Assembly: GCA_964423835.1 (NCBI GenBank)
Contig: CAYRGJ010000002.1
Span: 104,608 to 168,607 of the forward strand
Reading direction: 5' to 3'
Origin: an uncultured Dehalococcoidia bacterium
GTDB lineage: Bacteria; Chloroflexota; Dehalococcoidia; UBA2247; RBG-13-53-26
DNA: 64,000 nucleotides
Under the pieces are notes generated by a model. It was not told the DNA's origin. It was given only the letters and a program-made list of their open reading frames with translations, and made no database searches. Below, piece after piece: positions 662 through 35,505 of the stretch (position 1 is the first letter of the stretch; the number at the start of each line of letters is the position of its first letter). The translations under genes were made by a program, and so were the position numbers.

Positions 662-755
662 TGGCGGAGGGAGTGGGATTCGAACCCACGACGGAGGTTG
701 AAGCCCCCGTAAGCGCTTAGCAGGCGCCCGCACTAGACCACTATGCGATCCCTCC
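662..755 (-). tRNA. tRNA-Ser (anticodon GCU), CCA encoded
   Basis: The reverse complement folds as a cloverleaf: acceptor GGAGGGA/TCCCTCC, anticodon stem GGCGC/GCGCT with loop CUGCUAA, a long variable arm ACGGGGG..CCTCCGT, T-arm GTGGG-TTCGAAT-CCCAC, and 3' GCCA. Confidence 0.93.
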
Positions 756-34525: not shown

Positions 34526-34738
34526 GTTCAACCCCCTGAGACCGGCCCCCGCTGGAGAAACACACAGCGACCGCATGGTCGCTGCGCCCCTCAGCTATTT
34601 GACCAGGAGACTATTGCTGCTGCATGACATAATGTGACATTATCCAGTATACCATTACCCAGGCCAGAGGCAAGCGGAATGTCCGGCGGCCGCGATCAGG
34701 AGGTGAACGATTTGTGATGCCGGCCAGCGTCATCCATC

Positions 34739-34768
34739 TTGACAGTCGGAGGGGAAAAAGCGTATCAT
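34739..34768 (+). promoter_or_regulatory. sigma70-like promoter TTGACA-18-TATCAT
   Basis: TTGACA at 34739-34744 and TATCAT at 34763-34768. It points into a segment with no plausible plus-strand ORF. Confidence 0.55.
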
Positions 34769-34775
34769 TAAATAC

Positions 34776-34936
34776 GTTCTCGGGTGGTCGAACCAGTCGA
34801 AGAGGCAAAGTCCGCCAGAGCAAAACGGGTAGGGTTGTCACCTACATGGCTCACTCGGAAACGAGCTGAAGCTGATCAAGGCTCAAAGGCGGAAAATGAC
34901 CGGGGAAGCTGGAAAGGTCACCCGAGATTTCTTTAT
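34776..34936 (+). ncRNA. candidate small structured RNA (unclassified; a rod-like 6S-type fold is possible)
   Basis: A closing helix TCTCGGGTG (34778-86) / CACCCGAGA (34919-27) starts a few nt after the predicted TSS and is followed by TTTCTTTAT. Internal helices include a CUCG-GAAA-CGAG tetraloop hairpin. Confidence 0.4.
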
Positions 34937-35505
34937 GTGCTTCGGGCCCTTATGGACCGGACCAGGCTGGTGGTGTCGCTCTGGACCACGGCCAGGTCCT
35001 CCTCGTTGGGGCGGCCCCTGATATCACCCAGGCGGCCCATGGTGTTGATCTCCCGTCCTTCGTGAAACTCCCCCACCACGTACCACTCGTCAGCCACATC
35101 GAACCCCAGGTGCTCGAAGAGCTGCGCCATGTACTTGCCAGAGGTCAGCACCTCGTTGCGCCCCGTGTGCGGGCCGGAGTAGGTGCAGAATACCACCGCC
35201 GTCTTGCCGGGAACCTTGGGGGCCCCCAGCTTGATGTCACCCCTGGCCCGGTGAAGGTTGAGCTTGTCCTTTATGAACTGCATCATCGGCGCGGCGGGCA
35301 GAAAATCGATGGACGGCGAGCCCAGGAATACCAGGTCGTACTCATAGAACTCCTTGTCCCCCGCATCGCCCACGCTGCAGAGAGTGCATTCCACATTCTC
35401 GCCGACAAGCCCGCGGCATATGGCGTCAGCCACCTTCCGGGTGTTCCCGGTAGCTGAGAAGTACACGATCAGCGCCTTCAGGTCTTTCTCGTCTCTGGAA
35501 TTCAC
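34933..35505 (-). CDS. flavodoxin-family protein
   Basis: KALIVYFSATGNTRKVA.. and a flavodoxin-like layout. GTG start preceded by GGGAGGGAG. Confidence 0.8.
   Translation of the reverse strand: MNSRDEKDLKALIVYFSATGNTRKVADAICRGLVGENVECTLCSVGDAGDKEFYEYDLVFLGSPSIDFLPAAPMMQFIKDKLNLHRARGDIKLGAPKVPGKTAVVFCTYSGPHTGRNEVLTSGKYMAQLFEHLGFDVADEWYVVGEFHEGREINTMGRLGDIRGRPNEEDLAVVQSDTTSLVRSIRARST

Follow-up and report, generated by a model that had tools for sequence, protein, structure and literature searches.

To our knowledge, hardly any regulatory RNAs have been catalogued for the Dehalococcoidia, a class of organohalide respirers that abound in sediment and anaerobic digesters, and a recognisable 6S RNA is lacking. 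A genome normally holds one or two copies of 6S RNA, and Qrr1-5, LhrC1-5 and the csRNAs are sibling small RNAs (sRNAs) whose conserved part is a single-stranded seed. In Dehalococcoides mccartyi CBDB1 (GCF_000009025.1), RNA sequencing revealed three abundant sRNAs that match no Rfam family (PMC12961961, 2026). One of these, sRNA1, is 188 nucleotides (nt) long, third in transcript abundance and located in the core genome; it has no Rfam match, is predicted to form a hairpin with a central asymmetric loop, is accompanied by small antisense transcripts and was proposed by its authors to be a 6S RNA (PMC12961961). Here we analysed an element at positions 34776-34936 of a 64,000-nt stretch (the window) from an uncultured Dehalococcoidia bacterium (GCA_964423835.1, contig CAYRGJ010000002.1, positions 104,608 to 168,607). 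The data strongly support a genuine, independently transcribed small-RNA gene of ~157 nt on the plus strand, one member of a family that spans the class. It is an independent gene rather than a leader because it has its own promoter and U-tract, and because the downstream gene is nearly always convergent across the family. The gene and its immediate surroundings comprise:

34776-34936, plus strand: the small RNA itself, ~157-161 nt, with a putative start at 34775-34777 and a putative 3' end within the U-tract
34739-34768, plus strand: sigma-70-type promoter, with -35 TTGACA (34739-44), an 18-nt spacer and -10 TATCAT (34763-68)
34709-34721, plus strand: upstream box GATTTGTGATGCC, ~55-65 nt 5' of the start site, retained in 5/7 orthologues of the window paralogue group
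34778-34789, plus strand: 5' strand of helix P1, UCUCGGGUGGUC, pairing with 34916-27 (99.7% paired across 65 sequences)
34790-34797, plus strand: 5' half of the conserved base, with loop GAA (34790-92) and P2 CCAGU (34793-97)
34798-34816, plus strand: P3/P4 5' region, with purine-rich internal loop CGAAGA, P3 GGC (34804-06), loop AAAG and P4 UCCGCC (34811-16)
34817-34887, plus strand: apical domain, with GAGC (34818-21), P6, P7 and two GCUC words
34829-33 / 34841-45, plus strand: P6 GUAGG/CCUAC, closing loop GUUGUCA, with compensatory changes at two pairs
34848-51 and 34881-84, plus strand: the GCUC words, each able to pair with GAGC 34818-21
34854-65, plus strand: P7 CUCG-GAAA-CGAG, within the apical domain
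34888-34915, plus strand: 3' halves, with P4 GGCGGA (34888-93), P3 G.CC (34898, 34900-01) and purine loop GGGGAA (34902-07)
34908-34915, plus strand: 3' halves continued, with P2 GCUGG (34908-12) and loop AAA (34913-15)
34916-34927, plus strand: 3' strand of P1, GGUCACCCGAGA, pairing with 34778-89
34928-34936, plus strand: U-tract UUUCUUUAU, directly 3' of P1 and overlapping the flavodoxin stop codon (34933-35)
34933-35505, minus strand: convergent flavodoxin-like gene (Pfam Flavodoxin_1, E 5e-7), a neighbour outside the RNA gene

An initial annotation of this region had proposed an independent sRNA with a near-consensus promoter at 34739-34768, and both proposals were borne out. The promoter matches 11/12 consensus positions and is the top-ranked promoter-like site in a 2-kb scan. 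P1 and the U-tract UUUCUUUAU together form an intrinsic-terminator-like 3' end, and every copy of the RNA has a T-rich tail after P1. The closing helix had been annotated as 9 bp (UCUCGGGUG / CACCCGAGA); it is present and runs directly into the U-tract, but its length needed correction, as it extends to 12 bp through G.U, U.G and C-G pairs. The five nested helices placed inside it were all recovered at the same positions in the minimum-free-energy fold of the plus strand (-64 kcal/mol, z = -4.38), which none of 200 shuffled sequences equalled, whereas the minus strand folds less well (z = -2.85). The plus strand was taken as the RNA strand because the G.U pairs and the U-tract fix it. The resulting structure is a rod whose largest internal loops are 6x6 and 3x3, together with a central multiloop. 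Within the apical domain, GAGC 34818-21 has two alternative partners in the GCUC words, with 89% and 95% compatibility, and neither pairing is favoured by the data. The upstream box GATTTGTGATGCC is retained although upstream genes differ between orthologues of the window paralogue group, and this candidate site may bind a regulator or be of the UP type.

Homologous regions supplied the covariation that the initial annotation had named as a check. The ~155-nt class, with 65 distinct sequences, has 93.8% paired cells, compared with 30-45% when the partners are slid, and compensatory changes occur in P3, P4 (three pairs) and P6 (two pairs); for example, P3 pair 41-202 is GC in 36 sequences and AU in 16. 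P1 also covaries between classes (UCUCGGG/CCCGAGA, CCCUAGG/CCUAGGG, CCCUGGG/CCCAGGG and GUCCCAAG/CUUGGGGC), such that a class-wide alignment shows changes on both sides at 8/13 P1 pairs with 96.6% of cells paired. Inner P1, the adjoining loop and P2 vary only by G-C/G.U/A-U steps; here sequence is constrained as well as pairing, which points to a candidate recognition site. In the window, this inner base reads GGUGGUC-GAA-CCAGU ... GCUGG-AAA-GGUCACC, in agreement with the family pattern GGUGRUY-RAA-CCAGC ... GCUGG-RRA-GGUYACC. The RAA and CCAGY motifs are near-invariant in ~110 family members, and a purine run (RGGGARG/AAGGAGG) 5' of GCUGG is conserved family-wide.

DNA of the window occurs in anaerobic-digester, bioreactor and sludge metagenomes. 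Contigs from three metatranscriptome libraries of three studies lie over the RNA (34794-35060, 34803-34955 and 34798-34967). These are Logan contigs, which carry neither strand, ends nor level; the further-out flanks have no contig cover in the same three libraries, and such uncovered parts are uninformative. The short contigs are therefore a weak hint of an abundant short transcript from the window copy.

BLASTN identified three copies of the RNA in this genome and 1-5 in each of seven congeneric genomes. Covariance models raised these counts to 5-6 here and 2-9 in the congeners, and the two methods together placed members in 14/22 genomes of the taxonomic family. The window RNA scores 166 bits with covariance model R1, and the only match of model R3 in all 64 kb is the stretch 34777-34936 (69 bits, E 2e-17). 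In 19/19 aligned close copies, a TTGACA-17/18-TAnnAT promoter precedes the helix by 6-8 nt and the helix is followed by a T-rich tail; all distant orthologues inspected likewise have their own -35/-10 promoter of this form, at the same distance from the helix, and a U-tract behind it. Outside the promoter, RNA and tail signals, sequence is unrelated between paralogue groups. Single-base indels among copies exclude a coding function. Three close paralogue groups hold syntenic places within the genus, and these are therefore stable genes rather than active mobile elements. Beyond these genomes, a metagenome pattern scan yielded at least 120 further stretches, and a covariance model confirmed 81 matches on the 80 loci returned. 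In a pattern scan of genome contigs, matches in Verrucomicrobia, Akkermansia, Marinobacter, Acidobacteriota and 'GS5' were coding repeats or chance and were rejected by the covariance model.

All members share a base consisting of a 13-bp P1, a 3x3 loop (RAA/RRA), P2 (CCAGC/GCUGG) and the purine run before GCUGG, while their tops are completely variable. Lengths fall at 73, 80, 100-130 and 150-170 nt, within a family range of 73-237 nt. Many orthologues in other families of the class (L222, L223, L225 and L259) carry 1-3 copies of (C)UGAGUAGG ... CGAAAGGG, in which a short helix lies between the AGUA and GAA strands, an arrangement like that of the bulged-G (loop E / sarcin-ricin-like) motif; the window copy is without it.

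Across the copies, the next gene beyond the RNA is nearly always convergent, with its end 0-95 nt away; the exceptions have a same-strand gene or tRNA downstream. For one paralogue of this genome (G000, C6:10614-10769), a same-strand tRNA gene is found ~170 nt downstream (L050:58-130). In the window itself there is no same-strand downstream gene of the kind that a riboswitch or cis-leader would control, and the next gene is convergent, as first annotated: the flavodoxin-like gene on the minus strand has its stop codon within the U-tract of the RNA, and the two are syntenic in five congeneric genomes. The gene upstream is divergent and encodes a PEGA/Fn3 surface protein. Another ~155-nt paralogue in this genome (G000:C18:8533-8689; L020:1501-1654) is tail-to-tail with a RelA/SpoT-family gene (RelA_SpoT, TGS and ACT domains), an arrangement that is syntenic in several congeners. 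A further paralogue of this genome lies at G000:C26:11598-11758.

The 100-130-nt class differs in occurring once per genome and always tail-to-tail with a gene of ~480 amino acids (aa). We refer to this place as the founding locus. In this genome, the founding-locus copy (G000:C21:44397-44517) is tail-to-tail with the gene at G000:C21:42913-44367 (also L074:17-1474), and a large gene for a MEDS-PAS sensor is found upstream in divergent orientation; of the loci compared, 8/14 have a large homologue of it (342-1,485 aa as read) upstream. The window copy faces the flavodoxin-like gene and not this one, so it is a paralogue, and a genus-specific one. The ~480-aa protein is a fusion of an N-terminal GAF domain, a conserved middle (X) domain and a C-terminal HGPRTase equivalog (TIGR01203, 188.7 bits). 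The middle domain carries the signature FAHPSEEEF...TPDFYLP...YIELTT and belongs to no Pfam family. Its predicted structure (pLDDT 81.5) matches only PD-(D/E)XK nucleases, weakly (best E 2e-3), the matches being R2 endonuclease, T7 endonuclease I, Bax1, PspGI and Vsr. HGPRT and RelA/SpoT, each found convergent to a copy of the RNA, are both guanine-nucleotide enzymes, which is possibly a coincidence. In one genome (G013:C186, L068), a tandem duplication has given two identical 73-nt minimal RNAs, at 301-373 and 1008-1080, which are spaced by ~700 nt and each have a promoter; a 164-nt version is found 1.6 kb beyond (2663-2826), and the innermost 73-nt copy faces the fusion gene.

The fusion gene is single-copy and widespread, with the middle domain present in 66/151 Dehalococcoidia genomes sampled, and the RNA is convergent to it in 23/29 loci, with 3' ends 0-70 nt apart and protein identity of 47-57%. 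Seven genomes with no match to the first models have, at the corresponding position, a promoter, GUCCYRRGURRUC ... GGUYACYYRGGAC and a U-tract, giving RNAs of 118-237 nt. A third model (R3), built on founding-locus sequences of genomes missed by the first models, matches 28/151 genomes of the class sample with 1-3 copies each. The middle domain is present in 27/28 of these RNA-positive genomes, against 66/151 overall; because of the relatedness of these genomes the statistic is not independent, and the exception is a weak case (G036). Orthologues were also checked by hand in 11 genomes negative with the covariance models, four of which score with R3 in a filter-free search of the locus. In these four (G047 and three Dehalococcoides genomes) the gene is present without a model match, and the RNA was seen on inspection, with filter-free E values of ~1e-6 to 2e-7; the whole-genome R3 search of the three Dehalococcoides genomes was empty because its first-look filter missed loci that the filter-free search matches.

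This brings the family to D. mccartyi. In CP000027.1, which we take to be D. mccartyi (ethenogenes) strain 195, the gene order is thrS-infC-rpmI-rplT, the fusion gene and then the convergent RNA. The orthologue is ~188-190 nt from its putative start to the U-tract, with a sigma-70-type promoter, a long irregular hairpin and no Rfam match. Its locus (CP000027.1, about 689,380-689,570; L268:3012-3200, 189 nt) is annotated as a 62-aa hypothetical open reading frame (ORF) without a family, which is probably a spurious call over the RNA gene. By size, promoter, shape and location, rather than by coordinates, the founding-locus orthologue of D. mccartyi is most probably sRNA1, and one member of the family has thus probably been seen experimentally already, in 2026.

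The element could be matched to no described RNA family. With Rfam 15 at gathering scores, a tRNA at another place in the window was the sole match, and at E <= 10 there was no match in the 700 nt around the element, so the scan for 6S, signal recognition particle (SRP) and riboswitch models that had been proposed as a check placed it in no family. The tRNA gene (665-755, minus strand, 91 nt) has a long variable arm (Rfam tRNA, 56 bits). Relaxing the E limit to 10, 1 or 5 at the window locus, at 11 paralogue loci and at 11 orthologue loci yielded only tRNAs and chance rows. The Rfam 6S model (RF00013) had no match in the region at E <= 10, in this genome or for the D. mccartyi orthologue, and returned nothing in 40/41 Dehalococcoidia searched; there is consequently no competing 6S candidate. 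The same absence was rejected as evidence that the family has replaced 6S RNA, for which it is uninformative, since matches to the model are lacking class-wide. An RNase P-like word (GAGGCAAAGUCC) was discarded, as it is not conserved among copies and the RNase P and SRP RNAs map elsewhere in the genome. Searches of the 97.7%-complete genome found no CsrA (PF02599), Ro60/TROVE (PF05731) or Hfq; a CsrB/RsmZ sponge reading was dropped because CsrA was not found, and a Y-RNA reading because Ro60/TROVE was not found and there was no Rfam match to Y RNA models.

Our best explanation, held with middling confidence, is that the window encodes an independent sRNA of a class-wide family of stable, protein-binding (6S-like) RNAs, with RNA polymerase holoenzyme as the likeliest partner. 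The near-consensus sigma-70 promoter is predicted to fire 1-3 nt before the 12-bp helix, which locks the 5' and 3' ends together and, with the U-tract, would end the transcript. The product would be a stable and abundant RNA that acts via a bound protein rather than a single pairing seed. Its invariant base, comprising inner P1 with tandem G.U pairs, the 3x3 purine loop, P2 and the purine-rich internal loops, would serve as the protein-recognition handle, and the variable top would modulate the effect. The genus-specific paralogues would then be diverged, sub-functional copies. Two points make RNA polymerase holoenzyme, the partner of 6S RNA, the leading candidate: the D. mccartyi report and the failure to find any other 6S RNA in 40/41 relatives.

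The 6S comparison, made already in the initial annotation, is favoured by the fit of the ~188-nt D. mccartyi orthologue to sRNA1, a proposed 6S RNA, but several points weigh against our explanation. There is no Rfam 6S similarity even at E <= 10, and the window RNA, with its 6x6 and 3x3 loops and multiloop, has no evident large open-promoter-like bubble. The 2-9 copies in this genus exceed the one or two that are normal for 6S RNAs, and founding-locus copies in this taxonomic family are only 73-123 nt and therefore too short for a classical 6S RNA; the presence of multiple copies and of relatives of 73-120 nt speaks against that class. In addition, the identity of sRNA1 with the orthologue derives from size and features rather than coordinates, and the RNA evidence for the window copy consists entirely of contigs that give no strand, ends or level.

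Trans-acting sibling sRNAs of the Qrr1-5 or LhrC1-5 type, pairing with mRNAs via exposed loops (GUUGUCA and the purine runs) and using their paired ends for stability only, are a serious but unlikely alternative. Such RNAs would be expected to have multiple paralogues in a genome, with a separate promoter and terminator for each, as well as syntenic positions within the genus and variable apical parts. No single-stranded segment stands out as a conserved seed, however; the invariant positions are scattered, the helix-loop-helix base is the most conserved part, Hfq was not found, and the exposed runs are purine-rich and Shine-Dalgarno-like, the opposite of the usual anti-Shine-Dalgarno seeds. 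We consider it quite unlikely that the RNA is instead a partner of the GAF / PD-(D/E)XK-like / HGPRT protein, with the conserved base as the binding site and the extra copies as alternative RNAs for the same protein. This would explain the synteny at 23/29 loci across the class, with adjacent 3' ends despite protein identities of 47-57%, as well as the near-constant co-occurrence with the X domain and its predicted nuclease-like fold, and structured RNAs that end in a terminator and keep to a single protein family, in either orientation, offer a precedent (PMC5737381). Against it, co-occurrence may reflect shared ancestry in one subclade, window-type paralogues adjoin unrelated genes (flavodoxin, RelA/SpoT, an ORF without assignment), the X-domain structural matches are weak, and, with a full HGPRT equivalog at its C-terminus, the protein may be no more than a regulated salvage enzyme. 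A bolder form of this idea, in which the helix-loop-helix base docks the fusion protein and the family is the RNA half of a class-wide RNA-protein module (sensor, nuclease-like and purine salvage) with 5-9 interchangeable RNAs in this genus, is more speculative still.

Two further readings concern the RNA as a local element. It is very unlikely that it acts mainly as an antisense or bidirectional terminator that ends or interferes with transcription of the convergent gene, here flavodoxin. In most copies the convergent stop codon is 0-95 nt from the RNA 3' end, and in the window it is within the U-tract; for the antisense role at the flavodoxin 3' end suggested in the initial annotation, at most an incidental overlap is possible. 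Sequence and structure are kept across paralogues beside unrelated genes and across the class, every copy has a strong dedicated promoter, the G.U pairs favour the plus strand, and some copies have a same-strand gene or tRNA downstream. An orphan riboswitch-like sensor, in which P1 is its own terminator and controls read-through antisense transcription, had also been suggested and is the least credible of all. The highly conserved purine-rich internal loops, the U-tract directly after P1 and neighbours linked to guanine nucleotide metabolism (HGPRT and RelA/SpoT) could be read in its favour, but the very stable, GC-rich P1 of 12-13 bp forms without a ligand, no alternative anti-terminator fold was seen, apical domains vary from 20 to 180 nt, there is no regulated downstream gene, and no Rfam riboswitch matches.

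What is new here is the family itself, with its class-wide spread, its modular build, a gene neighbour that stays the same, and an amplification within this genus of which the window copy is one product. Alignments and covariance models are provided for a family absent from Rfam, and the family is probably connected to the most abundant non-ribosomal D. mccartyi transcript. If this is the 6S RNA of the lineage, it would be a structurally divergent form that has been amplified and miniaturised in one clade, and would probe the limits of size and modularity of an RNA-polymerase decoy. Otherwise, the family would represent a new protein-handle RNA with a class-conserved position beside a GAF-nuclease-HGPRT fusion, which offers a concrete candidate partner.

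The family shares features with several known systems. Like Qrr1-5, LhrC1-5 and the csRNAs, it has several paralogues per genome, each with a promoter and terminator, but its conserved part is a paired base and Hfq was not found in the genome. The pairing of both ends in a conserved stem beneath a variable top resembles the Y RNA YrlA, whose stem is protein-binding, and the purine-rich, GGA-rich unpaired runs resemble CsrB/RsmZ; both systems differ in their cognate proteins, Ro60/TROVE and CsrA, which were not found in the genome, and neither gives an Rfam match. DUF3800-I, drum and skipping-rope RNAs are also terminator-ended structured RNAs that are rarely in 5' UTRs (untranslated regions) and lie near one protein family in either orientation (PMC5737381), whereas the candidate partner here is GAF / PD-(D/E)XK-like / HGPRT, there is no Rfam match to any of these motifs and the RNA also amplifies away from the fusion gene. 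With 6S/SsrS (RF00013), the family shares independent transcription, apparent abundance, a length of ~150-190 nt, a long closing stem and a rod with internal loops; it differs in its multiple copies, its 73-120-nt relatives and the absence of covariance-model similarity or a clear large bubble, and its invariant helix-loop-helix base is not a known 6S feature. The probable counterpart in D. mccartyi is sRNA1 (PMC12961961), whose 188 nt fit the ~188-190 nt of the strain 195 orthologue and which likewise is a predicted hairpin, lacks an Rfam match and lies in the core genome. The window RNA is shorter (~157 nt), has another apical domain and is a paralogue at a separate locus, in a genus that carries 2-9 copies.

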